Origin: an uncultured Planctomycetia bacterium
Lineage (GTDB): Bacteria; Omnitrophota; Gorgyraeia; JABMRG01
Direction: 5' to 3'
Length of the DNA stretch: 64,000 bases
Assembly (NCBI GenBank): GCA_964493115.1
Contig: CAZBNF010000001.1
Location: 1,786-65,785 of the forward strand
Position numbers and translations under genes: made by a program. The notes under the pieces are model-generated. The model was not told where the DNA came from and did no database searches. It saw only the letters and a program-made list of their open reading frames with translations. Position 1 is the stretch's first letter. Each line of letters opens with the position of its first letter. Positions 3,389 through 42,149 of the stretch are shown here, piece after piece.

Positions 3389-4302
3389 TACTTAACCTTT
3401 TTTACTAAATCATGCTTAAAACATATTGACCAGAGCATCTTATTAAGGCGCTCTGCGTTTTCCTTGTTCTTTTCTTCGTCATATTTGAACATATCTTCAC
3501 CCTCAACCCAGATACCAGTGCTTTGAATAGTGCCTTTTAAACCGTGGGAATTTATATCCTGTTGTGTGCCGTGTACGATTATCGCCTTGGGGGCATATTT
3601 CGATTTCATAATATCAGCTAGCAGGCCGGCTGTTGGTTCAGATTTTCTGCCATGAGGTTCATCCATAGGCACATCTGTAGCGCATATTACTATATCGGGC
3701 CTGAATGCTGATAATGCTGACAGCACTTCCTTTTGACAATATACAGATATATACTCGTATTCGCCGTAAGGCTCTATAAGCGGGGGTGGGTATTCATTTT
3801 CACCATCCTGAATCGGCAAAAGATACGGCATCCAGAACTCTCTTTCCACAAAAAGTATCTTTGCCACAGGGATAACATCATCGCGTTTTTTGATTTCATC
3901 AAGTGTAACAGGAATAACTGTTGTATCTTTATCTTTCTGAGCCTTTAATACCTCATCAAGCCTTTCTTTTATTTCATTTAATACAGGGGGCTTTGGGAAA
4001 AAGCCGTCAACTCCAAGCTTTGCCACCACATCTTTCACCTGGGAATCATAGCTTGTTATCACTAATACTTTTGTTGAGGCGTATTTCTCGCGTATTATTT
4101 TTAGTATTTGCGTACCTTTTATGCCGGGAAGCTGCATATCAAGCAGAACCGCATCAGGCCTTTGCGTTTCAAGTATTTTCAAGGCCTCTTCACCTGTTAA
4201 GGCAACGTATAATTCATAATCAGAGGCCTTTAAAAAGTAACTTTCAAACAGGTTTACCAGGCTTTGATCATCTTCTACCATGAGAACTTTCATATTAGGC
4301 AT
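3388..4302 (-). CDS. Response regulator: N-terminal REC domain plus an uncharacterised ~180-aa C-terminal output domain.
   Basis: MKVLMVEDDQ...DAVLLDMQLPGIKG...VLVITSY...GVDGFFPKP is a typical CheY-like receiver with the phospho-acceptor Asp in LLDMQLPG. The C-terminal half (DVPMDEPHG...AIIVHGTQQD) matches no family I can name from memory. A GAGGAGG Shine-Dalgarno sequence lies 5 nt upstream. Confidence 0.75.
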   Translation of the reverse strand: MPNMKVLMVEDDQSLVNLFESYFLKASDYELYVALTGEEALKILETQRPDAVLLDMQLPGIKGTQILKIIREKYASTKVLVITSYDSQVKDVVAKLGVDGFFPKPPVLNEIKERLDEVLKAQKDKDTTVIPVTLDEIKKRDDVIPVAKILFVEREFWMPYLLPIQDGENEYPPPLIEPYGEYEYISVYCQKEVLSALSAFRPDIVICATDVPMDEPHGRKSEPTAGLLADIMKSKYAPKAIIVHGTQQDINSHGLKGTIQSTGIWVEGEDMFKYDEEKNKENAERLNKMLWSICFKHDLVKKVK

Positions 4303-4451: not shown

Positions 4452-7400
4452 TTACGCGGCTTTTTGTATTGCGCTGTTTCTATTTTTAAGGTTTCTAAGA
4501 TTTGCAGGGTCAATTCTGTTGCTTCTTATATCAACAGCAGGCGTTGTGACCGTGGTTTCTTGTGGAGTCATTAATGTATCGGATGTAATGCTTCTTTGGG
4601 CATTAGCAGATGATAATAATCTCATAACAGCTTTTTCAAGGATCAGGCTTGAGCGATGTTTTTGCTGCAGCCTCTGCAAAACAGGAAGTGCCCTTATATC
4701 TTCTATTTTACCTAATACTTCGGCAAGGCCTTCCATTTGACTTATACTATTAGTTTTTTCTATCGTATTTAGCAAAACAGGCACTATTTCTTTGCCTTTT
4801 TGTGTTAATACCTCTATGGCTTGTTCTCTTTTTTCTAAGGCAAGATGTTCTTCATTATAAGAACCAGCGCTTGAAGATTTCACCTGCATTTCAGCAGTTT
4901 TTGAAAGACTATTAACCCCAACTTCGGAAGCGGGTTTTTGATGCACTATAATATCTATTAAAACTTTGGCCAACACTTTTGGTAAATCATCAATCTCATT
5001 AACTAAAATAAATGGTTTATAAACATCTTTTACGTATTCCATAGCATATCCAATACCTATGCCAATTACTTCTATGTGTTTTCTATGGGCTTCAGCTAAA
5101 TATTTAGTTACACTCTCTCTCCCATTGCCCTGCCCATCTGTAATTACAATAGCTATCTTTGAATCTCCATCTTGACTTTCTAATTCCTTGATTGCCAACT
5201 CTACAGCCTCTGCATCGTTAGTGCCTTGTCCGCGTGCCATATAACTTAGCACTTCACTAATCAGGCTATCCTTGTTTTCATACCGGAATTTCTTGCCAAA
5301 CTCTTTATGAATCCAAGCTCTTTCGCTAAAACCTATTACGCTAAAATCAATATCCAGCCGCGATAGTACTTCTTGCAATAATACCAGGCTATGCATAGCG
5401 TTTATTACCTTATCAGAAGATCCCATTGAACCGCTTTCATCTAAAACAAGTGCAAATTTGAAGCTGCGCTTAGTAGGCTTTACTCTTCTTAACCATATGT
5501 CCATATCTGCGGTTTGTTCCATTTGCATGGCTTTTCTCAAATTTAGTTTTGGCCCGGTAGAATAATCACCTTTATATTTAGGCTTAATGTCTTTATGTAA
5601 TTCATTATCCAAAACACCGAATAACTGTTCAATCAAGCGGGTCATAGGAAGATAGTACTCATCATAACGTGTTAATTTTCTTTTACTATCTTGGTCGAGC
5701 TTCTCTCTAAGCTCTATTTGCTCTAATGCTGAAAGAGATTTTTCGCTTTTAGAAGCTGGGATACTTCGATCCATTAAGCCCTGAGGCTGCCCTACTCCTT
5801 CAGAAATTTTAGATTTACTATCTTTTCGTTCCCGACTTTCTTCTTTAGTAAGTGCGTCTGATGCTGTTTTTTTCTCATCAGTCTTATCTGCGCTACCCTT
5901 TATTACTTGGTTTTTAGTATCTGCTCTGCCGGCATCTTTCTTTACCCTGCTGCTTCCCGCAGTTTTATCTTCGGAAACAGTTTTTTCCAATTCTTCGTCA
6001 ATGGGAAATTTTCGCCCTAAAGCGTCTGCTGCTTCTTTAGATTTTTGTTCAACTTCTTGATTAGCTTTTTCCTGTTGTTGCTGAGAAGAAGCACCCTTAC
6101 CACTAGTTCGACTATTATTTTGCTTAGCTATACTTTTAGAGTCCTCTACGAGCTCATTATACGCGGGCAATATGTTGTGCTTGATAATCCATGCTGCATT
6201 TTGTGCAGCGCTTATTTTTTCTTCTGCGCTAGGGCTGAGATTGATAACAATATGGTGGGTTTCCCCTTCGGATAAACTAATGATTTCTTTATGACCCCTT
6301 GCTGTTGTCAGTACAATTTTATTCTCATCGATGCGCTGTATAGCACTTATATCAGGCTGTCCCAAATATTGCCTTTGCCCTATATGAGGAAGGTCAATAG
6401 ACATTGGTTTAAATACAGGAGAAGAAATTGTTATTCTATTTCCGCGTTCTTTTGTTACTGAAATAGTTCCCGGTAATGTTTCATAGGCCCTAATAGCGTC
6501 TTCCCTGGTTCTTTGCAGGACATCTAAAACGCGCTTATTCTTAATTGCAGGATGCTCTTTACCGTAAAACCAGTGGTGGATCAATCCTAATCCATATTGA
6601 ATATGCGGTAAAACAGTTGAATCATGAAAGGGCTCTTTTTGATCTATGGGGAATGTTTCTTTGTATAGATCTCTAAAGTAAGAAGAAGCCCCCTTATATT
6701 TTGCCATAATCCAATTATTGACCCGTGGATCTTCTACAGCATTAAATAAAAATCTATTTGATTCTGATTCGTGGAATTCGGGGTCAACCCATGTAATGTC
6801 ACGATGGCTGCCCTCATGCATAGCAGTTGCTACGTTGCACCGCCAGTTCTTCTTCATTAAATCCTTCTCAGGAAATACAATCGTGGGCGGGTCGGTATCA
6901 TATGTAATGCCCCATTCGTTTCCTGGATGGGGCTGAACTTTAACATTAAAATCTCCGCCAAAAAATTTCGCGGTTAATTCAATTTTACGCATAGCACTGT
7001 TTACCCGCTGCAGCTTTTGCCAGCGGTTTAACCTGCTAAACCAGCTTAATTCCTGCTGAGCCTCAGTTATATGCAATCCTGCAGAAGATGATTTTTGCGA
7101 AGTCAAATTTTCTGGATTTTTTCCTAGCTGTTCCTGCAAATTCGCTATTTCTTTATACATGCCATCTATTTTCTTGCTTAACTGGGCTAGGGCATCGCTT
7201 GTTGATTTAAGACTTTCTAATTTCTTCTGCATTGTTTCCAGATCATCTTCTGGATCTTTAGCAATTTGGCCTAAGGTTCCTTGCTGTTTTACATTTTTCT
7301 TTAAAATTAAATCTAGCTGTTCTTGAATATCATCAAGTTTGCTTTCAGTGCTTTTGGTTTCAACCGTTTTAGTTTCCAGCTCTTGTTGCGGAGCTCTGGC

Positions 7401-10400
7401 GGACTCCTCTAATCTTGCCTCTTTTTCCTGTCTTTCTTTTTCAGCTTGTGCTTTGTGCGCGGTTTCTGCTTCGGTTGCTTGAATACGGGATTCTGCTTCT
7501 TTAAATTTCTGCTCAAAACGGTCTTTTAATTCTTGCGTTCTTTGTGGATCATGCCTTTCCACAATAACTATCTTTTCTTCAAACAACTTTCTTTCTCTCT
7601 CTAAACCCTCTCTGCTGCCTGCTGAGGATGTCTTAGTAGCCGCGATATTGTCTAGGGACTGCATAATCGACTCTATATCAGACACAGCATTTCCCACGCT
7701 GATTGCAATAGCGCGCTCTGTATCAATCTTTTGCCTTCTGGCATTTATCTCTTTTTCAATATCGGCAAACTCGGCGTACAAGTCCTCTCCATATCCTTGC
7801 TTAAATTCCACGGAATATTTACCCGCATGCTCTTCGGACGCAGCTATCAGGACTATATCATTAACTATATCTTCATTTTTATCTATTATTGACTCTATTT
7901 GTTTAGACTGCTGCCTGCTTAGCTCTTCTAATCTTGCCTCTTTTACAAATAAAGTTCTGGGTTGTGAAATAGTTTTAAAAAACTCATTTGGAATTTCAGT
8001 TTCTTTTGTCTCTCTTTCAGGAGCAGCCAAGTAATGTTTGACTATTGAAATTTGTTCTTCTTCAGGCTGTTCACCAGAAACCCACAGTAAGCTAAATTTG
8101 TTAAGCATGGCCAAAGACAACCTCATTCTGCCTGCATAACTTTCAGGATTCATCGCAGCAAATAACCTAAAGGTGGGGTGTATACGATAAAAACCTTGTT
8201 TCCTCAACTGCGCATGAGCAATACTATCTGCTGTAGCAGGGTCTCGCGTAATGTTACCGCTTTTTAGTATCTCTTCTTTAAGTTTGTTGAATTTAGTATC
8301 ATATAATTTTGCGGGTAAATAAACTTCGTTCTCATGCTCTGTAACCACAAGAATTCCATCATCATCTAAGAGACTATTTATGCGCTCAAGCACTTCAGGC
8401 TCAGCTAAATTTAACTCATCAATGAGAATCCAACTGCCAGTTTCTAATGCTTGGAGCAATGCCCCTGGGTACCATTTATATCGGTTGGTCTTTTCCTCGG
8501 GAATAAACTGACCTATGAGTTCAGCTACATCCGTTTGGCCATCAAGATCTAAACTTATAAAATTTATATTGACAAGATCCGATAGATGTCTTACAAAAGC
8601 AGTTTTTCCGCCTCCTGTTGGCCCGACAAGAAGCATGGGTTCGTTTCTTAGTACCGCCTTGGCTAATTTTTTAAGATACTTAGAGGTAGAAGGTGTTAAA
8701 TCTAAAGGATGAGCAGGAACATAAATATCCCTACGGCCATTTGTTTCAAGATATATATCTCCGAAATATATTTTATTACCCTTACTAGAAATCTGATAAT
8801 CAGTATCATAAAAATCACTGCCAAATTTTTCAGCTAGCGTATCATAAAGATATTTTCTAAGTTCCTCTTGATGCATTTCTTCAGATAATCCATCACCATA
8901 AACTTCTTTGCCCTCTAAAACAGCCGCTCTTCTTAACGTATTTTCATCTTTAACCGTAGTGTCTTTTATGCGGTTCAGCCACCGCATTAAATGTCTAATA
9001 GTATAATATATCTTGCCATCTGCCAACTTTCTCCCTTTCTCTTTTATCTGGAAATGTACATCTAAAAACTTATCTAGAAGCTGGGCAGGGAGCTCCCTTC
9101 CGTAAAGTTCCTTGATGATGTCCATTGTATCGGGGTCTCTACGTAGTTCATCTATCCACTTAACCCTGAATCTATTCATTAAAGCTGGTGAAAATCTTTT
9201 TCTACCAGCATATTCTGCATCAGCGGGATTCATTGTCGCTAACAAACGGAAGTCTGGATGTATGCGGTATAGTTTTGTATCTTTAACCACAAGATACTCT
9301 GCGCCGTTTGAGTCCTTTTTAATCGCATCTGTATTGGATTTAAGTAAAATCTTTTTTTGATCATCATACCTCTCTGCCTGTATCCATTTCTCATTCTCAT
9401 GTTCGGTCACTACTAAAAATCCATCATCGTCTAATAAGGAATTTAATCTCTCAATGATCTGAGACGGGGCAAGATTGATCTCATCTAAAACAAGCCAATG
9501 CCCTTCTCGCATTGCTTCGATTAATATGCCATTGCGCCAAACAAAAACGCCATTTTCATCGGGCTTAAAGCCACCAATAAATTCTAATTTTTCTGTTTGG
9601 CCGCTTAGATTAAATCTTCGGAAATTATTTCGTGATTTATTAGCAAGATATCTTATAAAAGAAGTCTTACCTACGCCTGTTTCTCCTACCAATAAAAGAG
9701 GTTCTTTTAAAATTATACTCAAGGCAATATTGCTGAGATTTAATTTTGTTTGAGGCGTTAAAATAAGTCTTGCAACTTCTTCACTGGGGACATAATCCAA
9801 TGTATTATTTTTATTAACAAGCACTTGGGCACCTTCAATGTCAATTGATTTACTATCAAAATTAATTTCAACAGGCACACGTCCAATCGCATACAATTTT
9901 AAATAATCCAAGTCCAACAACGGGACCGCCATTTGCTTTCCCTTCAAAACATCCTCAATAATCTCTATAAACAGTTTCCTGTCGTTTGTTTTTGAATCCT
10001 CTCCTTTTTCATTTTTATATCTGAATTCTTTGGCATGCAGCCTGTCAATATAGATATAAGCCAGTCCTTTATTAAATGCCTTATTCATGCCAACTTTAGG
10101 GCTCATCATGGAAATATAACGTGATAGAGCCCGCAATTCTCTTATGCTAAACTCATATTCTGCAGTAAAAACTGAAAGTTTTTTAAAAATATCCTGGAGT
10201 TCTGTGTGGAATAAAACCATGGCTTTAGCTGCTGAGTCCAAGGCGTGGCCTTTAATAGTACCTTTTGAATACTCCGATAAATATCCTTTAGTTATTTCCG
10301 TTAATTCTTCAAAAGACATATCGCCAGAAATCCAGATTTCGGTAAATTTATTACGCATTGCTATAGACAGCCTGTTTCTGCCTGCATAATGCTCTGGGTT

Positions 10401-13400
10401 CATTGCTGAAAAAAGTCTAAAATCAGGATGAATTCTAAATATCTTTTCTTTTGTCAGCTTTTCGATTGCCCTTTGCCTCGCTTCTTCTTTGGATACTCCC
10501 GAAGTAATATATTCCTTTATAAATACATCTAATTTCTTTTCGTATTCAACACTTGATATAAGTTTTTCGTTCTCATGTTCGGTTATCACCAAACAAGAGT
10601 CATCATCTAGAAGTGAATTTATGCGCTCTAAAATTTCAGCTTCAGCTAAATTAATTTCATCAAATAGTACCCACCATCCTTCTTTAAGCGCTCTCACTAG
10701 CATACCGTCCTGCCAGAAAAATTCGTTCTTCTTTCCCTCAACAGGAACATATTGCCCAATGAGTTCGGAAGTATCTGTTTGAGCATCTAAATTCATCCTG
10801 GCAAAATTATTTTGCGTAAGATGTGCTATATAACGAATAAATGAGGTTTTCGCACTTCCTGTCGGGCCTACCAGCAGAACTTTTTCATTCATCATAACAG
10901 CCTTGGCAATTCTTCTTAGATAATGTAAAGTACTCTGTGTGTGGGTTAAGATTGCTTCGCGTCCCGGTATGTATGGGCCTCCTCTTTGATTTTTGGGTAC
11001 AACTATATCTCCAAAAATAGAGTCAGATTGCACAATTTGCGGACTTTGGCCTAAAACAGATTGTTTCTCAAACGCTATCCTTATAAGTTCATTGGCCAGG
11101 AAGTCCTGTTCATCTTCATCACGAATTCTATCGCTATAAACCTCCCAAAGCTCTCGCATAAGGATATCATCCCTTTGGTAACCATCTAGAGGCATGCTTG
11201 TATTGTTTTCTTCTAAATCTATTATACGTGCTACTCGTTTTCCTAATTTTAAAAGATCGCGAATTGAATAGTGATACGGATCAACTGCATCTTTTCCAAT
11301 TTCCCGTAGCTTAGCTGCTGTTGATATGCGCTCATGAACAATACCAAGCCTGTCTAATGACCCGTCTCCTGAAATAAAATGCTTTTCAATGTCGTCTTTA
11401 AGGGCACCTGTTTCTTTAGCATAATACTTTTCTAAAAGTACGAGTTTTTTTTCTGTGGTGGTAAGCTCATCTATCCACTTGACCCTAAATCTATTCATAA
11501 GAGCGGGGGAAAGAATTTTACGCCCTGCATATTCAGCAGGATTCATTGTTGCAAATAAACGGAAATCGGGATGAACACAATAAATCCTTCTTCCGTCACT
11601 ATCTACAAGATAGTTAACTTTTCTAAACTCATCGAAGAACTCTTCAGCTCCCTGTCTTTTTTTCTCTTCATATACTCCGATAGACTTAAAATGCTCTCCT
11701 AAGTGTTCTGCCAAAACCAATGTGCGATCATCGTCTAAAAGCGAGTTTAGTCTTTCAAGAACCTGTGATTCTGCAAGATTTAACTCATCCAAAACCAGCC
11801 AATGCCCATAAAGCATTGCCTCTAACAGTATTCCGTCTTTCCACTTAAATACTCCTGATAGATCCGGCTTATATCCTCCTATAAATTCTGTTTTATCGGT
11901 TTGGCCGCTTAGGTTAAATCTCCTAAAACTGTGCCTGGTCAAATTAGCTAAATATCGCACCAAAGATGTTTTGCCTACGCCTGTTTCTCCTATTAATAAA
12001 ACAGGGTCATCTAATAATACAGAAAGAGATATTTGTTTTAGGGCCTTGACAGTATCTATAACAGGGATTAATTCAGAATTTTCTGATTCAGGAATAAAAA
12101 CTTGCGTATTTCCTGAATCCTGTAATGGCGCGGGTACAAAGATTTTATATATAAGAGCGCCGTTGTCCAACCGCTTGATTGCGTCTGGCCGCAATGTTTT
12201 TAGCATATCATCTTTGCTTGTAGCTTCTTTTTTTATACTTGCCACTATATTATTACTTTCAAGTAACGCATTACGATATTTTTTAAAGGTCTCTATTATC
12301 AAAGGTCCATAGCTTGATAAAATTTCCCTAAATCCAATCCATTCTCTCTTTTTAATTTCATCACCATATATTGCTTTTATAGGTTTATATACGATTTCTC
12401 TAAATGTAGTTGCGGCTAAAATAGTAAAACTGGAAATAAAATAACCAAAAGCTCCTCCGGTAATCGCGCCAAATGCAATCTGTGTCCACTGCGGAACCCA
12501 CCCAATAATAGGAATTACGGGCAGGCTGTCTATTTTTGCAGTATGGAATAGCGAAATATTGAAAATTATACCCAATATAAAGCCTGATAAAAGCGTAAGC
12601 TTGCCATACCACGTATTAAAATAATTAAGTTTTTCTTCTGATTCAAATGGGAAGTGAATAAATTTGCCTTCTTTCGTTTTTTCAAGCAATGAATAAAAGT
12701 CCTCTAAATCCAATGCCAATTTTTTATATCGTGCAGAAAGTATTTGTAGCTGCGGTAAATAAATAAGATAATATGATTGCCCGAGTAAATCTAACAGGCC
12801 AAAACTAATTCCAAATACCCCCGAAAATATACTTAAATAAGCAGAAAATACAAGTATACTGCTAGTTGTGTATAAAGCTAAAATTACGGGCAAAGTAAGC
12901 AGGCCTGCTACAATAGTGCCTGTGACTAAATAGGTAGCGGCGTTTTCTTTATTGAATCTCCAAATCCTGCTTCCAAATAGGTATCCCAAAAAAGCAATTA
13001 AAGCTGTGCTTAAGCTAAAAGACGAAGCTTGCAATATAAAAGGTGTAGCAAAAATCATTACTGCTGAACTAATAAGAAGTAAAGAAATTATTGTTGATTT
13101 TTTCTTTAAAAACCCAAATATACCCAAATAATCTCCTGAACTGTCTTTTAATCTAATAAGTCTTTGCAAAGTCTTATCCCATGGCAATTTATCGGGGCGC
13201 TTGCCAGGGTTTTGCGAAAGACGCGGTATAGCTTTCTGTTCCCATTCCACCCATTCTAATTTTTCTAAAACCAAAGCTGAAGTTAATCTTAAATCTTGAT
13301 TATCATCGCTTAGAAATACCGCCAGCTTAGCCGCAAATGGTGTAAATTCATTAACAAAATTCTTATCCCTTGGGTCAAATACCTGACTTAACGTTTCCAT

Positions 13401-16400
13401 TGCTGCTTGTTTTATTTTTGAATTAGGGTGTTCTAAAGCTGCATCAATTAATTCAAGGGCAATGCCTTTTGGTAAAAGAGCAAAACCATATATACCATGG
13501 ATCTGCTTATCTGGATTAGTAAGATTAGAAAAAATATGGATTAAATATTTTTCCCGAAGTTCTTTGGGAAAGCCTAAGGTTAAATCAACAAACTTAGCGG
13601 CTAACTTCTGTGAGGCTATATCCATGCCTTCGCTTTTTCCCTGGCTAATTAGCTCATTAAAACTTACGCCTTCCCCTAAAAGCTCTCTTTCCTCTTCAAC
13701 GCTAATCGCCTCAAGCCCCCCAATACCAGACTGGACTGCCTGGGTAAAAATTGGCCCTAGTATTTCTTTATAAAATATATCCTTATCCCCTGAAATATGT
13801 TCTTTTGTTCTGGCAGCTGACCCATATAATCTGTCACAATATATATATATAGCGCCATCAAAAATAGCTCTATTTATTCCCCAATACCAAATATTATGAG
13901 GATCTGTCTTGATTTGTTCAAAAAATGCTATGGATTGCATGGTTTTTTCTATACCAGACTGTAATTCCTTCTTATATTCTTCTATCTTCTGAGGATCGCT
14001 TATCTTTGTTATCTCTTCTTTTATCTTAATTATCCGGGATGCTAGCTTTTGCTTATTGTCAGCATTTTTTTCTCTTTGTAGCAGACCTTCTAACGGGTTT
14101 AATTTTACTTCTTTGAGTTTTTCTATATATTCTTGTTTTTTTACAGGATCGGATATCATGGTTAATATTTCTCGTTTTTCATTTAATTGCTGCCTGTTAT
14201 CCTCAACTGATTTCGCAATAACTCCTTCACCAATCTGCATAACTAGATTTCTAATAAACTCAGCCCAATCCTTTAGGTCTCTAAGGCTAAAGTTATAATC
14301 TTCAGCATTTCCAGATAAAGCAAGCCTATTAAATCTATTCTCTCTGATCTTATTCAAAATAGACATATGGACTGAAGCCATAACTTCTATTATAGTATCC
14401 AAAGATTTGCCTTGAATAGGCGGTCCTTTAAATAAACCTTCTTTGGCCAAATAAAAACGTATAATTTCTTTTAATTCTTCGGGGGAAAAATCCCCGCTAA
14501 ACCATTTTTCAATAAATTTATTTTTCATTGCTAAAGACAGCCTATTTCTACCAGCATAATGCTCTGGATTCATAGCAGCAAATAGCCTGAAATTTTCATG
14601 AATACGGCGTAAATTAGCCATATTTTCACCATTAGCTTTTTTTTCATCATAAACATAACCAGGAATCCAGACTTCCCCTTTATGCTCAGTCACTACTAAT
14701 GAACCATCATCATCTAAAAGTGAATTTATGCGCTCTAAAATCTCAGGTTCTGCTAAATTAAACTCATCAAGAAGAAGCCAGTACCCTTCTTTCATTGCCC
14801 TAATCAGATCTCCATCCTGCCACAGAAACTCGGAAGTCCCCTCTTTGGGGATATTTTTACCGATTAAATCTCCAATATCGGTTTGACTATCAAGGTTAAG
14901 ACGAATAAAATTATTCTTTGTTAAATAAGCAATGTTTGTAAGCGAAGCTGTTTTTGCACTTCCTGTCGGGCCCACCAGAAGAAGGTTTTCTTTCATTTCA
15001 ATCGACCTGGCTAAATTTCTTAAATTTTTCTTCGTAGCAGGAATGGGGGCCAACTCTGCTTTGCTGGTAGGGATAAACAAGCCACCCTTCTTATTAATAG
15101 GTAAAGCAACGTCTCCAAAATACACTTTATTTTTAGGCTCATCTATTTTTATCTCTGTGTCAACCTGCGGAGGTTCGCATCCAAATACTTGTTCTTTTCT
15201 AAGCAGGCCCTTAAACAATCTTTGATCTGCTTCTGATTTCAGGCTATCGCCATAAACTTCCTGCGCCTCAAGAGCAAGCTGTTTGTTGATAATTTCAGGG
15301 GAAGGGATATTGCTAAGCCTAGATAGCCATTGCTGGATACGTAAAGCAAGCCTAAAGAATTGCCTAATTGTAAAATAATAAGGCTGGCCAATTTCCTTGC
15401 CTAATTCTCCTTCCTTACCAGAAATACCGGCTAGCTCAGCGTAGAAATTGGAAAGCCTGTTAATTATATCATCGTTTAAATGATATTTTTTTCTTAAAAT
15501 TTCGCATATTTCATCTTGAGTAAAGTTTCGTATCCATTTAACCCTGAATTTATTCATTAAAGCAGGCGAAAGCTGTTTTCTACCCTCATATTCGGGAGGA
15601 TTCATTGTAGCAAAAATCCTGAAATTAGGATGTATTCTAAAAATACCCCTCGCAGACAGCTGAGTAATAGCCTGTTTAATCAGATTTTCTCTTGTGCCGG
15701 TATGGCTACCTGCATATTCGTTAACCAATTTATCATAATCTTTAGCTTGCAGCCATTGCTCTCCTTTATGTTCATTGATCTTTAAGTAGCCCTTTGGTTC
15801 AAGAAGATAACGAATACGTTCGATTACTTCTGGTTCAGCTAAATTAATCTCATCTAGAACGAGCCAGTGTCCTTTCTGCATTGACTCAATTAGAATGCCA
15901 TTGTACCATTCAAACTTAACCCCTTTCTGTTTATCAAGGCCCTTTTTATGAGCAATTGCCTCTGCAACATTGGCAACCAATTCCCATCTACGGGCGCTTA
16001 AGGCATCTTGTATTAGTTTTTTGGCTTTTGGAAAAGATATCTTGCCTCCAGTAATTAATCCTACTGATTCGGCCAATATCCGCTGCTCCTGTCTTGTCGA
16101 TGCTGCCACAGCTTGATTAATAATATCAATTGCGTCTTCCCGCGTTAAATATGTATGCGAAGGCTTAAAGCCTCCGATAAACTCCAGCTTATCAGTTTGA
16201 CCATTAAGGTTAAAGCGTCTAAAAGCATTTTTAGTTAAAAAAGCCAAATCTCTAACCAGGGATGTCTTGCCAACACCTGTTTCACCTATTAAAAGAACTG
16301 GGTCATTTAAATCTACTGCCAAGGCCACTTTTTCAAGATCCTCTATTGTCCTGGGTATAAGAACAAGTTCTGCCGACTGCCTGCTAGGTATATATTCGGA

Positions 16401-19400
16401 ATCAGTAGAAACATTTATTTTTATTTTCAGATCACCAATTGTTATATCTCTATCGTTTTTAACAATATTGTTTATAGCTTGTTCTTTAGACAAAAGCGCT
16501 AATAAATCAATTTTTCTACCCTCTTTATAATCTGCCAATTCAAGAACTTCTAAATCTAGACTCAAAGCATTTATATTATAATAAAATCTATCTTTATCTT
16601 TTTGGTTTTCCATGCGGTCAGCATAAACATAAACAGCACCTTTTATAAATGATGTGGCAGCCCCCCATTGGGTGTGAAAACGTTGATAAAATTTAGCCCA
16701 TTTATAGAGTTCCCTTAAAGTGAATTCATAAGGTTCGAGCTTGTTTTCTCCTATATTCCTTTTGTGAATATCTGCTACCATTTTTCTGTGAAACCTTACC
16801 ATAAGATTAGCTATTTTAGGCTCTATATCATATTTTGTTCCAAGATAAGAAGCTATTCTTTTCGAATGCAAATCTTGCCATAGAGATATTACTTTATCTC
16901 TTAACACAACCATTATTGCAGCGGATAAACCGTGCTGCAAATCCTTAGGGTAAAACTGCCTAATGTACTTAATCAGTAAATCTGGAATTTTCTCTATTCC
17001 ATAATTCTGGGCGTACGTTAAGATCTCATGGAATTTTCTATCATCGAGATCATTATCTGCTTTGAGCACAGAAAGAACTTCTTCTTGTTGGCTGGGTACG
17101 AAAGAAAGGAAACGCATTATTTCATGACGGAGAACGGTAAGCTCCTCTATCACAGGAGGGGCCCTCCGATTTAAGGATTCAACTAAAATATGCTGTAATT
17201 CATGCTCTATTTCCATAAATAACAAATAGTAAGATTTAAAAGCATCTTTATCAATTATAATTTCGTGAGTATTCTTGTCCAAATGCATAAGGCGGTCATT
17301 GCCTGTAACAATTTTGATTTTGGTTATTTTTTGAATTGCCTGTAAATTTCCCGACGCGGCTAATTCAGATAAAACTTTTTCCAGCATTCCCTTTTCTTTA
17401 GAGGTAATTAAGTCCTTGTAGTTGGAATTTATTCGTAATTCTATATTCAATCCGCTTCTAATAAATGCTTCTGCAATAATCATAGGTTTTTGGTTTAAGC
17501 CAACATGCCTTAATATGGATGACGCTTTCCTTTTAGTTTTCTGTTCTCTTATATATTTAATAAATCCAAATAAGCCCCCAATACCCACCAAGATTATAAG
17601 ATATGACGGGGCTAATACTCTCGCCCATTTTTTTATTTCAGGCCATGTAACATAATTGAAGTGGAGGTTTTGATGAGTCTTTTGCGCTTCCAGATAATCT
17701 ATTTTCCATAAAACTGCTTTAGCCAAGCCGCTTAATTCTAGATCGGACTTATCCCAAATAGAATTAGTAAGCGCTCTTTTTGAAGGAGCGCCTATTCTAA
17801 CAAGAACATTAAGAAGAGCCTGCCTTGTTAAGGGGTTTTCATTACGTAAATTTGCAACCAATTCATCACAAGCAGGCTTACCTATACTTACTAAGGCCTC
17901 TGCTGATAGTTGTCTTGTCAGGACATCTTTGCTTTCCAAACCAACAATAAGGGCTCTAACTCCTTGCGTATCCAGCATCTTTATAGCGTTTAAAGCATGG
18001 GCCCGTTCAGTTTCCGGAGATTCTTGAGAAGCTAACACTCTTACTAATCTATAGACAATTTGCGAGTTGGACTTTTCTTTTAACTCTGCAATCGCGGTTT
18101 TTCTAATATTTTCACCATGATGTAGAATTCTCTGCAAAAATCTGTCTATGTACACATTATCAAGAGCAATTATCTCTTCAATTGCCTTGGCAGTAGTTAA
18201 CCTAACATATTCATCAGGATCATTTAGAGCCTTATTTAAAAATATTTGTATGTTTGGAGGTGAAAGCCTGCCCAAAGAAAAAACCGTTTGCCTGCGTACA
18301 TAAGGATTCGGATCATCTAAATAAGGCGTTAGCGAATTAATAATCTCCTGAGAATAGCTAAAATTACCTAAAATATTTGCAGCAACCGCCCTAACCCGCC
18401 AATCAGAATCTCTTAAACTTGCGGCTATCCTATGAGCAACTAAATTTCGAAATTGATAATTAAGAGAGGCTCTTTCCAAGCTAACTATTGCTGCTTTGCG
18501 CACAAATAGATCATCATCCTGCAGGCGTTCCATCAACGGGCCAATGGATTGCGCAGTATCAAAGCCTCCATTAGAGCCCAAAGCCTGAACCGCAGCCTTA
18601 CGCACTCGTACTGATTTATCATTGGTAATGCCGATAAGCGGGCCCACGGCTTGCTTGTCCGTCATTTGAGCTAATGCAATAGCTGCTCTCCAGCGAACAT
18701 CTTCGTTTTGGTTCTGTAAAGCCGGAATAAGCAAATTAATTGATGCGTCAGGGTTGTTGATATCCAACAAGGCGTTTAAAGCGCCTTCTCTTACCGTGTA
18801 AGCATCAGAGCCAAAAGCTTGAATTAAAGAAGGAATTGCAGGAACGCCTATCCTGGTAAGCAATTCTACCGATTGTTTTCTTGCAGAAGGATTCCAATGG
18901 TTTAACCTCTCCACAAGAGGGCTCACTGCTTCGGGGCCGATTTTCGCTAAAATATTTTGCGCTTCTTCTCCAGTTTTTTCATGATCAGAAATCCGAAGAA
19001 GCGGCATAGCAGCAGGCCGGCCTATTTGGACAAGCGCTTCTTCGACAATGCTTCTTTTTATCTCGAGATTACGAGAACCATAATAAGGACGATTATGTTC
19101 AGCTTTTAAAGGATAGATTAGATGCTCGCCTGATATAGTGCTGTTTTTTAAAATTCTAATAATGGGCCTTACCGCTTTTTCTGCCCGTAATCTGCCCAAA
19201 GTTTGTATTGAGATATTTACTATATCGCTCTCTCTGTCATCCAGCCTTTCTATAAACGGTTTGATTATATCAGGGCTATTACTTCTTGCTAAAACCATTG
19301 CTGCTGTGCGGCACACCTCATCGTCGTTGTCTTGCAGTGCTTTAAGCAGTATGGGTGTAGGATCAGCCCCGCTTATATGTATTATCGCCTCAACAACTAC

Positions 19401-22400
19401 TTGAATGTCAAAATCTTTATCATAACGACCTTTTGCCATTAATAGCAATGGCTCTACAGCCCTGCTGTCATTCAGTTGAGTTAGTGCGTCAATGGCTATT
19501 TTCCAATTTATGCGCCTATTTTGCATGGCATTTATAATCGGTTCAACCGCTGCTTTATCACCTATTATTCCTAGAATTTTAGCTGCAAAGTCAGCCCTGT
19601 TAAGCCCATCCCTTCTATAAGTATGGTGTCGGCTCGGGCCATCTAATGCACTGATCAGAAAACTTACCGCTGGTTTTCCCATATTTACCAGTGCGTTTTC
19701 ATCATAGTTATCTATAGATCTTAATATGCTGGCTTCTTGAGAATCTGTCTTGACACGCGCTAGAGCCTTTACAGCGTGCTCCCTTATTTCCCAATCGCTA
19801 TCGCTGGATGCCCTCATTAAAAAATCTACTGCTTGAGGGTTATTTAATTCAGAAACAATCTCCACAGCCCTTCGCCTAACACTTGGATTATCATTAGAAA
19901 GAACCTTGGATGCTGCTTGCATTACCTGCTGAGGATGATCTTTGCCAATTCTAACTAAAGCTGCCTTTGCAGTATCTTGATATTGAGAGTTATTAATATC
20001 ACGTAACATATCCGCCAAACTAGATAACGCAGGTCTTCCTATTCGCACAAACGCATCTGTAACTTTGCTTTGAAGTTCTGAATTCAGGCCTAGTATTTTC
20101 TTTAACAATTCAGTATCTGTAGTATTTTCTATAACACCTAACCTGTTCAATGAAGCAACGGCTGCGCGTCTTACCTCATAAGAACTATCGTTTAATGCTT
20201 CGATTAAAGGCTTAATAGCCTGGCTGTCGCCGCAAATGCCCAAAGCCTCAGCAGCAGCTTCTCTTATAGATGTTTCTCTGTCCGATAAGGCCTCAATAAG
20301 TGAAATGATTATTTTCTGATCCCGCGAACCCCGCTGTTTATGCTCCGTCAACCCTTTTATGGCTGTAATTCTATTCGCTGATTCTTTACTAGAAAAATAA
20401 ACAGCGGTTTTATAGCCTATGAAACCAGAAATGCCCGAAAATGCTATAACTAAAAATAAGGCTACACCACTTACGGGGCGTGATAATTTCTTTTTTATAA
20501 TATATCTCACTGTAGCAAAAAGTGACAAGAAGCCAAGGAACCCAAATGTTACCCACATGGTTGTTATAGATATGTTGTTCAGTAACTTTGCAAGTTCGTT
20601 TACAGATGGGCTGGATTTTTTTAATAGTTCTTCATGCATACCAATGCTATAGAGTAAATAAAAGCAGTAAACCATGAAAAAAACACTAGCAGCTGTTATT
20701 TCTTTACCTACTCTTTTCTCTTCTATTTGTCCTTTAATAAATTCTTCTGTTTTTTCAACCCCCTTTATAAATCCGCTTATAGGATAATAAATTAGGTATT
20801 TGCCAAAATAATAAGGCAGCAATACTGTATGCTTGATAGCTTTACCTATGCCCTTGCCTACGGCTTTAGAATTCTCAACACTTGCCTTAATAAGATAACC
20901 TGCTCCCACAATAGAGCCTAAACCAAGAATGCTAAGGCCTATCCATTTAAAAACCATGCCTGCCAACCGGCGCCGTTCGGCTTCCACGCGTTTACGTTCT
21001 GCCTGCTCCTGCTCTCGTTTAATTCTCTCTTCTTGGCGTTTACGCTCTTGCTCTATTCGGGCTGCTTCTGCTCGTTTTTGACGCTCTATTCGAGCTTTTT
21101 CTTCTTCGAGTCTTTGTTGCTCTGTTTTTTCAGGTGTTTCAACCGTCTGTTGGGGGATTGCCTGAGGCCTCTGCCTCACAGTAGGCAACTCTATCTTGGT
21201 TTCCTCCTCACTTGGCTGGGTGGTTCGCATAATATGTTCTTCTGGAACAGGCTGTTGTGCATGTATTTGCGGCGTAAATCCTAACCAGGAAGAAACTATA
21301 ACTAACCCCATCAAAAACATTTTGGGGCCCTTAAACCAGCGTTTGGCCCTATCTAACATTCCTGATTTTGGTAATTTAGATTTACTGATAGCCTGATTTA
21401 TGTTTTGCTCTTCCTGGTTTACTCTTTCAAGGAGATTTTTTAATTCTTTGATAATTTCACTCTCCGGGCGCCTCGCTGTCTTGCTAATTCTATCAATCTC
21501 ATATGATGAATTTAATACATCTTTAATTATTGCTCTTGTATCTTCAAAAGGCTGTGTAAGAATATAAACATCAACTTCTCCAACTAAAGAAATCCACCTC
21601 TCCCAGCTTGCTTTTGTCACAAGAAATCTTATCGCATCCCGCCCACCAGCCTCAGCGAGAGCGATTGTAATTGCTCTCATCAATTCTATCTTCAATCTTT
21701 CGTTCCCAATAATGCTAAGTGGATATTTATCAATTAATGTTTGAACAATGTAAGAACGCTTCTCCGTCTGCGTAGGGGTTGCTAACCCAGCCCCGATTTT
21801 GCCTAATGCTAAAATTGCTTCTAAACCAGTCTTACCTCCACTGATAGAATTTGTGAGAGGCGCAATAGCTTCTTCTGCACCGACAAATCCTAATGCGCGA
21901 ATTGCATTAACCTTTATGCTATCATCTGGGTCAAGACTGGTTAAAGATTTTAACAATATCGAAATTAGTTCGGGGTCTATTTGAATTTCCTTTATTCTAT
22001 CTATAAATTCAACCGGTGGTTGAGTTAATGCGCGTGACTCTGGAAACTTTTTATCAAACATATCAGTTCTATCTTTAAACTCGCATAAAAGCGAAATTAT
22101 TTCTACCTTAGGATTTCTTATCTTAAATTTAGCCAATTCCAGGGCAGATAGTCTCAGAAGATCCCAGTTAGATTCTTTGTCGTTTAAAATATCCAGCAAA
22201 GGTTGTTTAATAATCAGCTCTCTTGATATCTTAACTAACCTCTTTAATCTCTCGTTTTTGCTGGCAACGGCAAGCGTTGTGTCATTTTTGGTTTCTTCAA
22301 TTTTCTTATTTAATGCTTCTTTAACAATGTTTTCATCCATATCTTCTATACATTCAATTATAAAATTTATAATCTCTTTATCGGATTCTTCAAAAAAAGC

Positions 22401-25400
22401 AAGAATAAGCAGCTTAATTATGTCATTTGAACGCTCAAGGACTTTTGTTTTATTTTTATCTAAAATATATAGAATTAGTTCCGAGGCCTTAAGCCCTGCA
22501 GGGTCATTTATTTTCCTTAGGCTGCGGGCAATATGCTTTTTGACTATCCATAACGGATTTTCTAAGCAACGCATTAATTCTAAACCCCCAGCATTACCAA
22601 GTGCAGCCAAACTATCTTCAGCCTGTGTTTTTTTGGTGTCTACCTGGGTTTCTATTACATTGATTAATGGATCGATTGCTCGTAAATCTTTTGCTTTAGC
22701 CAAAGCGTGACCTACTATAAGAGGGTTTACATTTTTTCCTTCTCTCCAGCTATTTAAGAGATACTCTAAGGCCGGTTTTCCTAAAGCAACAAAAATATCT
22801 AACACTTCTGATTCAAAACGGTCGTAATCATGCCAAGGAATACTGCGCTCCTTTTCAATTAACAACCTAACTATGGGAAGACCAATTGCAATCAAGCTGT
22901 TTCTCGCAGCCAAACGTTTTTGCTCATTCTCGCTTACTAAACTATTAACAAACTCTTCTATTTCCTTCTGAGAAAACTTTATTTTAGTCTCTGTTCTTTC
23001 GTCCCTGGGAACTTCAGGCGCTTTCTCGATTTTTGCTTTTGAAATGGGCGGAGTAACTGCAGGCGGAGCCTTTTCTACTACTGGCGCTGTTTCAGCTTTT
23101 ACTTCAGAAACAGGCGGCTTAACTTGAAGAGCTGGGGACTTTACTTCAACTTCTGCCTTCTTTTCAATAACAGAAAGCACTTGCTGAGCCTTACTCGCCT
23201 GCGGCTCTTTGCCTAAGCGGGCAGCGTTTTGAAGGTATTTTATAGAGCCCCTGTCTTTCTTCCCTTTTTGATATGAATCTATTGCTTTAAGTACTCTATC
23301 TATAAAATCCTTATCTTCAGGGATACCATCTTTAATTGGCTGGACATAACTCATCCTGACAGCATTGCTTTTATGGTAAATTCTATCTAAAGTAAGTATA
23401 TCTGGTAACAGCCGAAGCGCATTGGGGTTATGGACACTATAGAATGCGTACTTAGCCCACTCCTGAACCTCTTCTGATTTGCTATATAAAGCATCTTTTA
23501 AAAATAGGAATCCTTCTTTATCTCCCAGTTGCATAAGAGCCCCCGCAAGAAGTATACATGCTTCGCTGGGACCATACCCCTCAAGGAGCTTATCTTTGCC
23601 TGCACTTTTTAGATATTCGCTGCTTTCTCTCGTAGCATATTTATCAAATACTTCTCTTATGCCCATTATCGCAGGGTCACCGATTGTATCGACAATATGC
23701 TGAAGAAGGCTTTTTAATGTTTTCGTACTATTTTCACGCACGCGACGCCACCCTGCGGGATCTTGCTGATATTGATGCTCAATTAGCGACGCAAATATTA
23801 ACCTCATCAAAGAATTTAAAGTACGGCTTATGCCTATAGGGCTGCCAAGAACACATAATAGGTGGGCAATTGAATTTAAAAAATCATCGCTATAGCTTAC
23901 TTTTCGGTTAATTGGTTTACCTTGAACATCATTATCTTTAATATAATAATAAGGATGGGCATATATTTCTTCAAGATATCGTATTGCAGAAAGCCTTATG
24001 TTTTCCAATTTTAATATATTTTCAATTACATCTCCACCAACACCATCTACATATAGTTGCATTAGCTCTCTTAAAACTGCACTATCGATTTCTTCTAACG
24101 ATTCCCAAATCTCTAAAACTTTTTGCATTTCTTCCGTGTTATAAAAACGCACCGCAGGATCTTCTAATCCGAGATCTTTAAGAGCTTTTTCTATAATAAC
24201 ACGTACATTTTTCGCACTAATAAGTTTTGGTTTTTCTTCAACAGGGGCTGTTGATTCTGGCTTAACTATTGGTTTGGTCGGAGCTTCTTCTACTACTGGC
24301 TCTGTTTCAGCTTTTACTTCAGGAACAGGCGGCTTAATTTTTTCAATAGGCCAGATTCTGGCAAAACCGCGCCAGGTCCAAGGATCTTTTCTTGGAAAAG
24401 AATCTAAAATTTCTTTATCCACGCCTATAGGCGCTAAACCCAGGCCTGCAAGCCTGCTTTGATAGGCAGTTTCTGAATCTGTCGGCACGATTTCAGATGC
24501 CTTATTCTCACGGCTAAGCGGTGGAAGTGTTGCGGTATATTCCCTTGCGTATTTTTTCTGAAAATACCCAACAAGCCCGCCATTAGGTGCATAAAAATTA
24601 GAAACAAAACCTAACCAGACTTGCTTAAATCCTGTATCTTGAGCGTATTTTGTTAAAGTCCCTATTATCTGTTCGCCAACGCCTGTAGATTCCTGAAGAT
24701 TATTAAAGGGGGGATTTTTCTCTCTCGGTTTAGGCATCGTATGAAATGGGCCTGCATCCTTAGAGGGCAGCTGCAAGGCATCGATAAGTAAAACAGCTTG
24801 ATTGTCTTTGTTTCTGGCAGCTGCTGTATAGACATTTCCTGCCCACTCCCACTGTCCTTGCGTAAGTTGTTTATACAATCTAAATTTTAAGAAACCCGGG
24901 CTGCGAATGTGGCCAAGAACATACTTTAAAAAAGGAGAACCATTGGCAAAGCCTGGGTCAGTACAATCCGCGCTGATATAACCCCCAATTAAATCTAAGA
25001 TATCACGCGGCGCTAAAACAAGCTTGTATTGACGGCCATTATAAGTAAAACCTAATCCGTTTTCTATAGAAGAGGGTGTTGCATCAAAAGATTCCTTTAA
25101 TCCGGCCTGCCTTTTAAACTGGTCGTAATCCTGCACAGAAAGCATATCCTCTTTTTTTATTCTTCCTCCTTGGGAAATGCTGCTGTAAAGGCTCTCTATT
25201 ATTCGGCTTAAAGAAGCGTCTTTTTTTGCCAGGTCAATTAACATTGCCTTAATTTCTGCTTTTGAGTCTTTAAAAGGATACAAGTTATTAAGCACAGCCC
25301 AAATATTCTGATCATGCTGGGGGATATTATCAAAGAGCTGGCTTATCATATATTCGGGAGTTCTTCTTCTGGCCTGTTCTTTCGCCTCTTCTTCTGTCAT

Positions 25401-34300: not shown

Positions 34301-35149
34301 CCCTTCTATCCCAAAATTTTCCCTTAAAAAATCCACCACATTTTTTCTGCAGGTTCTTGTCGTGTATTGACGGTGTGCGCTGATTACGTACTTGCCATGC
34401 GATACATAGATTTTTTCTTTGATACACGGCACATAGTTGAAATTGGCCATCAATATGTCTGCTATCTTTTCTATTGTTTCGCGCGAATTACAAGAAAAGC
34501 CTATTCTATAAGTGTCTTTTCTGCTCTTTTCCTTTGTTATCCATCCTTCGGCTATAAAAAATCCTAAAAGATAAGCCATATCTTCGTTTAGTTGCGCTGG
34601 GCACTGCCCGCCACAGCATTGACTCAATGCCGTTTTATGTTTGATATCCGGGTATGCGGCCCTTAAAACTACGTAGTCGTTGCTTGTTAGGTTTTTTGCT
34701 TCCTTCCACTCAAGCCCAAATTCTTTGTTTAGCACCTTAAATTTCTGTGAAGGGGTTGCTGTGGCTGTGTTTCCGTTGGCAAGGATAATTTTTACCAGTT
34801 CCTTGGGCGGCATTTCATACAACTCTGATACCGCGCAAATGCCCTTCTGCGTGTAAACACACTCTCCTCGTTTTACATCCTGAATAGGCACAAGCCCTCT
34901 GCTTGTCAAAACAAGTGTGTCTTTTACGAAACAATCCCCTACTATACGAGCGCTTTTTTTGTATGGCTTGGAGTACTGTAAGCTGAGCCCGTGCATAGTG
35001 TAAAGTATTCTGCGCTGAACAGGCTTTAGGCCGTCGCGCGCATCCGGCAGGGCGCGCCCGACAATTACACTCATAGCGTAATTAATATACGAGTCTTTTA
35101 TCTCGTCTTCAACATAGCGCTTCGCTATCTTTTCACCTTGTGTGTACAT
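31316..35149 (-). CDS. gyrA: DNA gyrase subunit A, interrupted by a 466-aa intein with a LAGLIDADG homing-endonuclease domain.
   Basis: The N-terminus has ...[30 protein letters not shown]. The extein reads KSARIVGD|C...SHN|[20 protein letters not shown]. Removing residues 73-538 leaves an ~811-aa GyrA with a C-terminal beta-pinwheel. Confidence 0.9.
33536..34933 (-). mobile_element. GyrA intein (466 aa), inserted in the GD/KYHPHGD region next to the active site, with a LAGLIDADG homing-endonuclease core.
   Basis: It starts with Cys (CFVKDTLVL) and ends with HN followed by a +1 Cys. Two LAGLIDADG-like blocks are present ([11 protein letters not shown] and [11 protein letters not shown]). Coordinates were checked against codon frame. 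Confidence 0.8.
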
Positions 35150-35168: not shown

Positions 35169-39330
<4,162 letters not shown>

Positions 39331-41883: not shown

Positions 41884-41967
41884 AAAACAAACCTCACTTT
41901 AATGTGTAATGGAAAAATAAGAATGCAATCATTATAACAAAAACTTGCCCTTTTGCAAGAGAAAAGT

Positions 41968-41997
41968 TTTTGCCTTGACTTAAAACCTTTTTATGCT
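41968..41997 (+). promoter_or_regulatory. Sigma70-like promoter for rpmH-rnpA-yidD-yidC.
   Basis: TTGACT, a 16-17-nt spacer, then TATACT, ~15 nt upstream of the rpmH ATG. Confidence 0.5.
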
Positions 41998-42011
41998 ATA
42001 CTCGTTTTACT

Positions 42012-42149
42012 ATGAAAAAACACTTAACAAATAAGTCTAATTTAAAGCGTAAGCGCAAACATGGCTTTAAAAAGCGCATGAGCACAGCAGGCGGCAGAAA
42101 AGTGCTTAAGCGGCGCAGGCGCAAGGGAAGAAAAACCCTGTCTGTATGA
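42012..42149 (+). CDS. rpmH: 50S ribosomal protein L34 (45 aa). It is not in the ORF track because it is shorter than 60 aa.
   Basis: Translates to [45 protein letters not shown]. Its stop overlaps the rnpA ATG (ATGA). Confidence 0.9.

Follow-up and report, generated by a model that had tools for sequence, protein, structure and literature searches.

Midasin and dynein are the textbook single-chain AAA+ rings. Here we describe a bacterial candidate for such a ring, encoded by a giant open reading frame (ORF) of 8,586 amino acids (aa) at positions 4452-30212 of a 64,000-nucleotide stretch of contig CAZBNF010000001.1; this whole stretch is referred to below as the window. The ORF holds all six Walker A motifs of the ring and lies on the minus strand, as do all of the features assigned to it by residue (aa) and nucleotide (nt) position. 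PMC3495828, citing Iyer et al. 2004, derives the arrangement of six tandem AAA+ domains from a MoxR-like ancestor and places its origin 'early in eukaryotic evolution', MoxR-class ATPases act with partners bearing a von Willebrand factor A (vWA) domain and a metal ion-dependent adhesion site (MIDAS) (PMC7159879, PMC3495828), and the origin of single-chain AAA+ rings was left open in two accounts (PMC4047620, PMC5100056). The literature that we searched contained no account of prokaryotic six-AAA MIDAS-tailed proteins, of a didomain grade, or of two-AAA_5 proteins with an HExxH domain and a MIDAS. The papers of Garbarino and Gibbons from 2002 and of Iyer et al. from 2004 may already describe pairing of AAA2/4 and of AAA3/5 in eukaryotic midasin. 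We consider it likely that the product of the window ORF is a midasin-like bacterial AAA+ ATPase, anchored in the membrane, whose motor ring derives from a triplicated two-domain module; the function of this protein we infer.

Midasin (Rea1/Mdn1/MDN1), the eukaryotic pre-60S maturation ATPase, shares with the window protein six AAA_5-type domains in one chain, midasin-type lids, two alternating domain classes, and, at the C-terminus, a MIDAS domain with the DxSxS, T and D elements preceded by a flexible charged region. The structure of yeast Rea1 shows no small domain on AAA6; that position, beside AAA1L, is filled by the N-terminal domain (PMC6286127). The window protein displays a Rea1-like lid arrangement, with no lid after its last AAA domain (D6) and an even-type lid before its first (D1), which would take a corresponding place in the ring. 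We considered whether this pre-D1 lid is a homolog of the Rea1 N-terminal domain and found no such relationship (hhalign probability 0.08). In contrast to midasin, the window protein lacks the ~1,700-aa Rea1-type linker (a phmmer search of its tail against the PDB matched the Mdn1 MIDAS region only) as well as the D/E-rich region, its spacer being K/E/S-rich instead. It possesses an HExxH domain, a transmembrane (TM) insert within the ring, N-terminal TM helices and a HEAT-rich N-terminus, all of which are foreign to midasin, and its six ATP sites are all canonical, a further difference. Midasin removes Rsa4 and Ytm1 from pre-60S particles in eukaryotic nuclei, and its substrates, the ubiquitin-like domains of these two proteins, are not expected in a bacterial host. 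Because the Rea1-type linker and the D/E-rich region are absent and extra domains are present, we do not file the protein as a midasin ortholog; judged from its sequence, it is midasin-like.

The MoxR + vWA pairs (NorQ/NorD, CbbQ/CbbO, RavA/ViaA and CoxD/CoxE) belong to the same AAA_5/MoxR class, and the NorD vWA domain is among the best folds for the tail of the window protein. In these systems a ~270-350-aa protein assembles into a homohexamer and the partner is a protein of its own, whereas the window protein unites six differentiated domains and the partner in a single chain; in single-domain relatives adjacent genes encode the two parts, as described below. The dynein heavy chain, and likewise the dynein-like core of RNF213, also concatenates six AAA+ modules in one chain, and a predicted model of D3-D4 superimposes on consecutive dynein modules, albeit with only ~15% sequence identity. 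No dynein stalk, microtubule-binding domain or N-terminal swinging linker was found in the window protein, and its D4 carries no long coiled-coil insert; dynein, for its part, has no vWA/MIDAS tail, and the Pfam dynein models match the giant ORF only over P-loop regions. In dynein, a helical bundle resembling a lid has been proposed to lie ahead of AAA1 (PMC4047620). The giant Omnitrophota proteins named 'Archaeovorins', among whose frequent domains is AAA_5 (bioRxiv 10.1101/2023.11.21.568195), share length, HEAT repeats, TM segments and AAA_5 with the window protein, all of them general features; the portion of that text that was searched describes no six-AAA ring, midasin relationship or MIDAS tail.

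The ring occupies nt 7908-16817 (aa ~4466-7435), slightly more than the 8000-16600 assigned to it in an earlier note on this DNA. Pfam recognized AAA_5 in seven stretches of the giant ORF (E 2e-134) together with 'Midasin AAA lid' domains, and the closest sequence relatives of the ring in the PDB were Rea1/Mdn1 (E 3e-135), followed distantly by NorQ, CbbQ and CobS. The strict alternation of Walker A types reported in that note was found exactly as described, within one ORF: GETGVGKT in the odd-type domains D1 (aa 4643, nt 16286), D3 (aa 6075, nt 11990) and D5 (aa 6843, nt 9686), and, in the even-type domains, GPTGSAKT in D2 (aa 5081, nt 14972) and D4 (aa 6449, nt 10868) and GPTGGGKT in D6 (aa 7197, nt 8624), at successive spacings of 438, 994, 374, 394 and 354 aa. 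The paralogous peptides said to precede the even domains were likewise all in place (KVYFGD at aa 5029, QRGGPY at aa 6409 and KIYFGD at aa 7147). All six sites follow the pattern GxxGxxK[T], hhhhDE and MN, with Lys-Thr retained in Walker A, Asp-Glu in Walker B and Asn at sensor 1; by profile, Walker A/B and sensor 1, the domains belong to the AAA_5/MoxR class (helix-2-insert clade).

Similarity between domains of the same type extended far beyond these motifs. In all-against-all BLASTP, same-type pairs reached 214-293 summed bits (D2-D4 265+28, D1-D5 261, D3-D5 260, D1-D3 259, D4-D6 243 and D2-D6 214), compared to 166-196 bits for cross-type pairs. All six same-type pairs therefore outranked all nine cross-type pairs, an outcome expected once in 5,005 for one pre-specified partition if the pairs are independent. 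Identity over 176 aligned core columns was 57-67% within types and 45-51% between them, such that the duplication history is still readable, and type-specific residues were spread over the entire large domain and lid. Self-alignment, the check proposed in the earlier note, returned 45% identity for both D2-D4 (over 315 aa) and D3-D5 (over 360 aa), each at E 5e-88 with lids included. The relationship was visible in DNA as well, where repeats of 75-300 nt with 71-80% identity joined same-type copies at spacings of 2304, 2250 and 4107 nt. Three tandem copies of a two-domain module, as the note had proposed, are thus borne out by large domains and lids alike.

Four further candidates were set aside in the course of this analysis. 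Duplication of a three-domain block (D1-3 to D4-6) would predict pairing of D1 with D4, D2 with D5 and D3 with D6, and those pairs were among the weakest in BLASTP. A recent duplication does not fit same-type identities of just 57-67% in protein and 71-80% in short DNA stretches, nor the orthology of positions across homologs. NRF versus NKF at the end of helix 4 was weighed as an arginine-finger switch between the types but does not hold strictly, as D1 carries NKF. Finally, Walker A type is not a general marker of domain class: it is reversed in the homolog P0254, which bears GPTGVGKS in its odd-type and GETGAGKT in its even-type domains, and in eukaryotes GETG sits in AAA2/4, which lean even.

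The lids disclosed where the repeated unit begins. Profiles built from lids only revealed two lid types that track the domain types, with odd lids on D1, D3 and D5 and even lids on D2 and D4. D1 (nt 15159-16421) is an odd large domain with its odd-type lid, D2 (nt 13767-15104) an even large domain whose even-type lid is split by a ~115-aa charged helical insert, and D3 (nt 11058-12125), D4 (nt 9933-11000) and D5 (nt 8838-9821) each carry the lid of their own type. D6 (nt 7908-8750) is an even large domain alone: its HMM (hidden Markov model) match stops at position 283 of 302, and the segment after it gave no hit with the lid HMMs or with BLAST. Conversely, ~50 aa upstream of D1 lies an even-type lid (aa 4466-4545, nt 16578-16817) with a sensor-2-like YEFTLREL. 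It scored 58.7 bits with an even-lid HMM built from D4 lids only versus 24.7 bits with the odd-lid HMM, matched lid2 (E 1e-9) and lid4 (E 2e-7) by BLASTP, and aligned with the even-lid profile in hhalign at probability 99.4 and E 2e-21. The same lid precedes D1 in P0003, P0005, P0007 and P0231, and also stands before the first AAA domain of the didomain protein P0258. Read from the sequence in this phase, the unit is S_even-L_odd-S_odd-L_even in three copies from aa ~4466 to ~7435. The pairing of a GETG with a GPTG domain proposed in the earlier note therefore holds, except that the unit starts with an even-type lid rather than with the GETG domain, and the units are not uniformly ~1100 aa long as given there, measuring instead ~800, ~1,390 and ~780 aa, a difference caused by inserts of ~80 aa within D1 and of ~540 aa separating D2 from D3.

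With D6 lacking a lid, the pre-D1 lid would most likely pack on D1 and complete the D6 site, a placement suggested by its sequence. A unit that starts with a lid offers, in the family of the window protein, a sequence-level explanation for the lidless last AAA domain of midasin. The parts list of the ring comprises six large domains and six lids. An AlphaFold2 (AF2) model of D3-D4, built on a 16-row alignment, had a mean local confidence (pLDDT) of 80 and a template-modelling confidence (pTM) of 0.80, and its top PDB folds were consecutive AAA modules of dynein motors (TMq 0.55-0.61 over ~780-870 columns). In this model, extra strands follow beta-2 and a long variable segment precedes the sensor-1 strand. 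The proposal that three pairs could close a pseudo-hexameric ring is plausible in view of the six large domains with lids, the intact sites, the dynein-like D3-D4 model and the relationship to midasin, and we regard a closed single-chain six-module ring as plausible on the same grounds.

Among the six domains, only D1 is interrupted at the helix-2 position, by a helical insert of ~80 aa (aa 4686-4766, nt 15915-16157). This is the site at which AAA2, AAA4 and AAA6 of Rea1 carry regulatory H2-alpha inserts.

The closest homologs of the ring were seven proteins of 25-52% identity, three of which are labelled Candidatus Omnitrophica/Omnitrophota; next came P0008, a 4,005-aa protein labelled 'Thermoproteota archaeon', and then eukaryotic midasins at 23-29% identity. 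Alternation was evident in all three groups when domains were compared profile to profile. Omnitrophota-like proteins scored 654-669 for odd-odd and 547-714 for even-even pairs, compared to 420-517 across types; P0008 scored 346-357 and 328-419, respectively, compared to 135-190; and eukaryotic midasins from nine species scored 269-377 among AAA1/3/5 and 252-373 among AAA2/4/6, compared to 181-262 across classes. Bacterial and archaeal-labelled types were in register (bacterial O2 with archaeal-labelled A2 332, versus 260 for O2 with A1). The link between prokaryotic type and eukaryotic position was weak: AAA4 leaned even, and AAA3 and AAA5 scored like the odd-leaning single-domain baseline.

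The earlier note had also suggested a phylogeny of the AAA domains. In neighbour-joining trees, positions D1, D3 and D6 were each monophyletic across the bacterial homologs (bootstrap 0.82, 0.88 and 0.64, respectively), and the six-domain state is therefore older than the divergence of these homologs; deeper nodes did not resolve. The odd and even classes of P0008 received bootstrap values of 1.00 and 0.99, and eukaryotic AAA2 and AAA4 grouped together at 0.83-0.97. Judged by these comparisons, the triplication is ancient and family-wide, with an alternation that recurs in eukaryotic midasin. What had been called an intragenic triplication thus stands as a triplicated module, and not as an event peculiar to this gene.

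Relatives at other levels of fusion came from a search with the tail among 1.84 billion cluster representatives, which yielded 2,392 proteins at the E <= 1e-3 threshold, 88 of them reaching E <= 1e-30. Further six-AAA relatives with strict odd/even alternation were P0231 (7,557 aa), P0254 (4,471 aa) and P0255 (6,708 aa). Extant INTERMEDIATES were also present, in that the HExxH + MIDAS tail is shared by at least 16 cluster representatives with two AAA domains. The first domain leaned odd and the second even in most of these two-AAA proteins, measured against the baseline of +10 to +20 of most single-domain proteins, and the second domain was shifted only weakly in P0271, P0295, P0309 and P0374. 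P0292, with four AAA_5 domains, showed no clear odd/even alternation. Among the two-AAA proteins with the same tail and odd-then-even order (for example P0258, P0246, P0261, P0294 and, from a metagenome-assembled genome of Elusimicrobiota, P0178), P0258 matches the lid-first unit of the window protein: an even lid at 175-242 (51.9 bits), L_odd at 284, an odd lid at 561-647, L_even at 689, HEGSH at 1027 and DESGS at 1440. By sequence, P0258 is exactly the predicted unit. These proteins hold one unit compared to three in the window protein, and to form a ring they would need to trimerize, the resulting assembly of three chains bearing three tails.

One step further back would stand a single-domain AAA_5 gene with the tail as a separate neighbouring gene. 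Among the nearest such genes in GTDB genomes, a vWA gene of 560-630 aa directly follows the AAA_5 gene at four loci (L002, L004, L005 and L006); the partners at L005 and L006 contain the HExxH..ALED motif, as does a non-adjacent vWA ORF at L001. A scan of GTDB genomes with the pair alignment, using degenerate patterns, gave only single-domain relatives among the matches listed. The triplication idea draws its strongest support from the series of single domain plus partner gene, fused didomain, and three units with one partner. Living one-unit and zero-fusion grades with the same tail, together with the readable repeat history and the lid-first unit, make the origin of concatenated AAA+ rings directly testable.

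About 25 proteins of ~811-879 aa annotated as 'midasin', each with two AAA domains, were considered as free didomains and rejected. They are exon fragments of eukaryotic midasin from a eukaryotic contig processed with a prokaryotic gene finder, and were accompanied by fragments of 625, 838 and 827 aa as well as by pieces of RRP40 and of a proteasome ATPase.

We propose that triplication of the odd-even module would have produced the six-domain chain ahead of the divergence of the known Omnitrophota-like relatives, and that such triplication may have taken place more than once in the family. Several points weigh against parts of this reading. The duplicated unit could be framed in another register: the closeness of D2 to D4 and of D3 to D5 also fits a duplication of D2D3 into D4D5, and could simply mean that the terminal domains diverged faster. 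Bootstrap values for the odd and even clades, when pooled, were only 0.07-0.33 (neighbour-joining, 124-176 columns), and the deep phylogeny did not resolve. We found no positional orthology between bacterial and archaeal-labelled domains, O1 scoring 282, 277 and 262 with A1, A3 and A5, respectively (profile-profile), and a single ancient triplication is therefore indistinguishable from repeated triplications or from homogenization of repeats. The closure of the ring, the topology in the membrane and the function are all matters that we infer. In addition, assignment of the protein to Omnitrophota from the giant ORF draws on the names of its closest homologs, and the view that the HExxH domain may be a zinc peptidase is a guess from its motif, as it has no Pfam or PDB match.

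The missing positional orthology gives weight to independent triplications, an alternative that we judge to be quite possible, if somewhat short of an even chance. Under this explanation, the shared ancestor of the bacterial, archaeal-labelled and eukaryotic proteins was an odd-even two-AAA protein acting as a trimer, and six-domain chains arose separately in several lineages, by events other than that of midasin. It would account for the missing positional orthology between bacterial and archaeal-labelled proteins and for the grouping of each lineage's odd domains with one another (archaeal odd 1.00, even 0.99). The positions of inserts also differ: D2 is followed by one in the window protein, in P0231 and in P0255, D4 is followed by one in P0008, and P0254 has one behind each of these domains. 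The pair of inserts in P0254 (aa 1380-1878 and 2530-3058) are 40% identical over 520 aa (E 1e-85), and therefore the insert was copied along with the unit, here ~1,150 aa long, which hints that triplication may have occurred more than once. In P0008, moreover, a segment resembling a lid seems to be retained behind D6 and a pre-D1 lid is missing, as though its unit had a different phase, and two-AAA proteins with the same tail are numerous today. However, the odd-first order, the three copies and the single C-terminal MIDAS tail are common to all lineages, saturation or gene conversion between repeats could wipe out a positional signal, and the lid-like segment of P0008 gave no significant BLAST or HMM match.

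It is rather doubtful, in our estimate, that the prokaryotic six-AAA MIDAS-tailed proteins are a surviving sister group or an ancestral grade of eukaryotic midasin. If they were, the single-chain ring, the odd/even pseudo-threefold layout and the permuted lid would all be prokaryotic inventions derived from a lid-first two-domain module, in contrast to the early eukaryotic origin given in PMC3495828, and the series from single domain to didomain to hexadomain would be still alive and open to experiment.

Convergence, in which single domains were duplicated serially and alternation was selected later by a ring with two kinds of interface, is very improbable. Functional alternation is known in AAA+ rings, as illustrated by the H2-alpha inserts on AAA2, AAA4 and AAA6 of Rea1 (PMC6286127); however, type-specific similarity in the window protein covers lids, connectors and pre-domain peptides and shows in DNA, and free-standing odd-even didomain proteins with the same lid order exist. 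The idea that a bacterium acquired a eukaryotic midasin and remodelled it, which would make the protein uninformative on ring origin, strikes us as far-fetched: although the closest solved relatives of ring and tail are eukaryotic midasins, a Pfam 'Midasin AAA lid' domain is present and few prokaryotic six-AAA relatives emerged in the first search, bacterial single-domain AAA_5 proteins (distance 0.99-1.22) lie nearer to the bacterial domains than eukaryotic midasin domains do (0.98-1.55) and are themselves far from the eukaryotic domains (1.37-1.87), the HExxH domain occurs in bacterial two-AAA proteins and some separate vWA partners and is absent from midasin, there is no similarity to the Rea1 linker or N-terminal domain, identity to midasins is just 23-29%, and all six ATP sites are intact here, while AAA1 and AAA6 are the most divergent eukaryotic domains.

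Returning to the membrane-anchored, midasin-like ATPase that we favor, its order from N- to C-terminus is a TM hairpin, a long helical/HEAT region, the six-AAA ring and an HExxH-MIDAS tail. The tail (aa 7704-8439, ~740 aa) is conserved in P0001, P0002, P0006 and P0008 at 27-51% identity. A charged helical, coiled-coil-like connector follows D6 (aa 7440-7720, nt 7053-7895) and leads to a putative metallopeptidase-like HExxH domain (aa 7740-8030, nt 6123-6995) with HEGSH at aa 7799 and NAVEDPRVN. H79, E80, H83, E107 and D108 of this domain are invariant in five homologs (HExxH...N-x-x-E-D motif), and AF2 pLDDT within it was 65-94. It had no match in Pfam/NCBIfam and no fold match in the PDB, every PDB fold match of the tail falling in the vWA part. 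Next comes a low-complexity K/E/S-rich spacer (aa 8031-8190, nt 5643-6122; AF2 pLDDT <50), the composition of aa 8001-8200 being K/S/E-rich and not acidic (D+E 0.17, K+R 0.18). The vWA domain (nt 4938-5465; Pfam VWA_2), which lies ~820 aa from D6, has a complete MIDAS composed of DESGS (aa 8258), GTND and TDG. Its closest solved sequence relative was the Mdn1 MIDAS region (6or5, E 3e-11), and the best fold matches of its predicted model were the MIDAS domains of Rea1 and MDN1, followed by the vWA domain of NorD.

Two sets of hydrophobic segments suggest how the protein may be placed in the cell. Between the D2 lid and the D3 large domain lies a ~540-aa insert (aa 5483-6020, nt 12153-13766) made of a HEAT-like stretch and about six hydrophobic helices (aa ~5697-5945), for which nothing significant was found in Pfam/NCBIfam; the sole library match among the queries with the HExxH domain and this insert was ComEC_N-term, sub-threshold at 19 bits. 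A homologous insert occurs in P0231 (E 5e-41), and TM-like clusters are found at this point of the ring in P0001, P0002, P0003, P0005, P0007, P0231 and P0255. P0008, P0254 and the midasins have no such hydrophobic helices in the ring, and a membrane-spanning module within a single-chain AAA+ ring is unusual, as is the conserved HExxH domain. Two further hydrophobic helices near the N-terminus (aa 77-99 and 516-540, around a ~415-aa loop; nt 28593-29984) suggest a membrane hairpin with an extracytoplasmic loop. Judged by hydropathy, the protein is probably membrane-anchored with its ring on the cytoplasmic side, and the D2-D3 insert, predicted to have an even number of helices and hence cytoplasmic flanks on both sides, would join the N-terminal helices in keeping the ring at the cytoplasmic membrane face.

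If the protein works as midasin and NorQ/NorD do, its MIDAS domain, carried by a flexible charged tail, would capture an acidic residue (carboxylate) of a substrate and then dock on the ring, whose ATP-driven movements would pull on or remodel that substrate; all six ATP sites look competent. The two domain classes would create two kinds of ATP site alternating round the ring, and the HExxH domain may add proteolysis of the substrate.

Some 4,400 aa of HEAT/helical sequence precede the ring, including a HEAT-repeat array at aa ~3300-4063 (nt 18024-20315; Pfam HEAT_2 E 2e-87 in nine stretches). The first ~3,300 residues (nt 20316-30212) had no Pfam match except a weak SMC/Rad50-like coiled-coil similarity near aa 350-500. 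At the locus of P0002 (L018, 1-22508) the HEAT-rich N-terminal part is a separate ORF of 3,448 aa directly upstream of a 4,835-aa AAA/vWA ORF; either the 8.6-kaa window protein corresponds to two adjacent genes there, or that assembly contains a frameshift.

The giant gene has dnaA, dnaN, gyrB, gyrA, rpmH, rnpA and yidC as neighbours in the window, and because dnaA, dnaN, gyrB and gyrA lie beside it, we take the host to be a bacterium and the locus to adjoin the replication origin. The origin region maps to ~41884-42011, within 40510-44421, where minus-strand dnaA/dnaN/gyrB/gyrA and plus-strand rpmH/rnpA/yidD/yidC diverge across a 128-bp gap; the cumulative GC skew reaches its minimum at ~38-42 kb, and gene orientation switches there. 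GC content is 0.35-0.41 in the giant gene (4452-30212) compared to 0.42-0.47 in 31000-64000 of the window, a difference that may reflect amino-acid composition or a different history. Both gyrA (1,277 aa, 31316-35149, minus strand) and gyrB (1,287 aa, 35169-39032, minus strand) contain inteins: that of gyrA comprises Intein_splicing and two LAGLIDADG homing-endonuclease domains, and gyrB bears an Intein_splicing insert at aa ~483-896. The giant ORF is immediately followed (2048-4302, minus strand) by a gene for a 304-aa response-regulator receiver protein and, in stop/start overlap with it, one for a 446-aa PilZ-domain protein with a methyltransferase-like region, an arrangement that weakly suggests regulation by a phosphorelay or by cyclic di-GMP.

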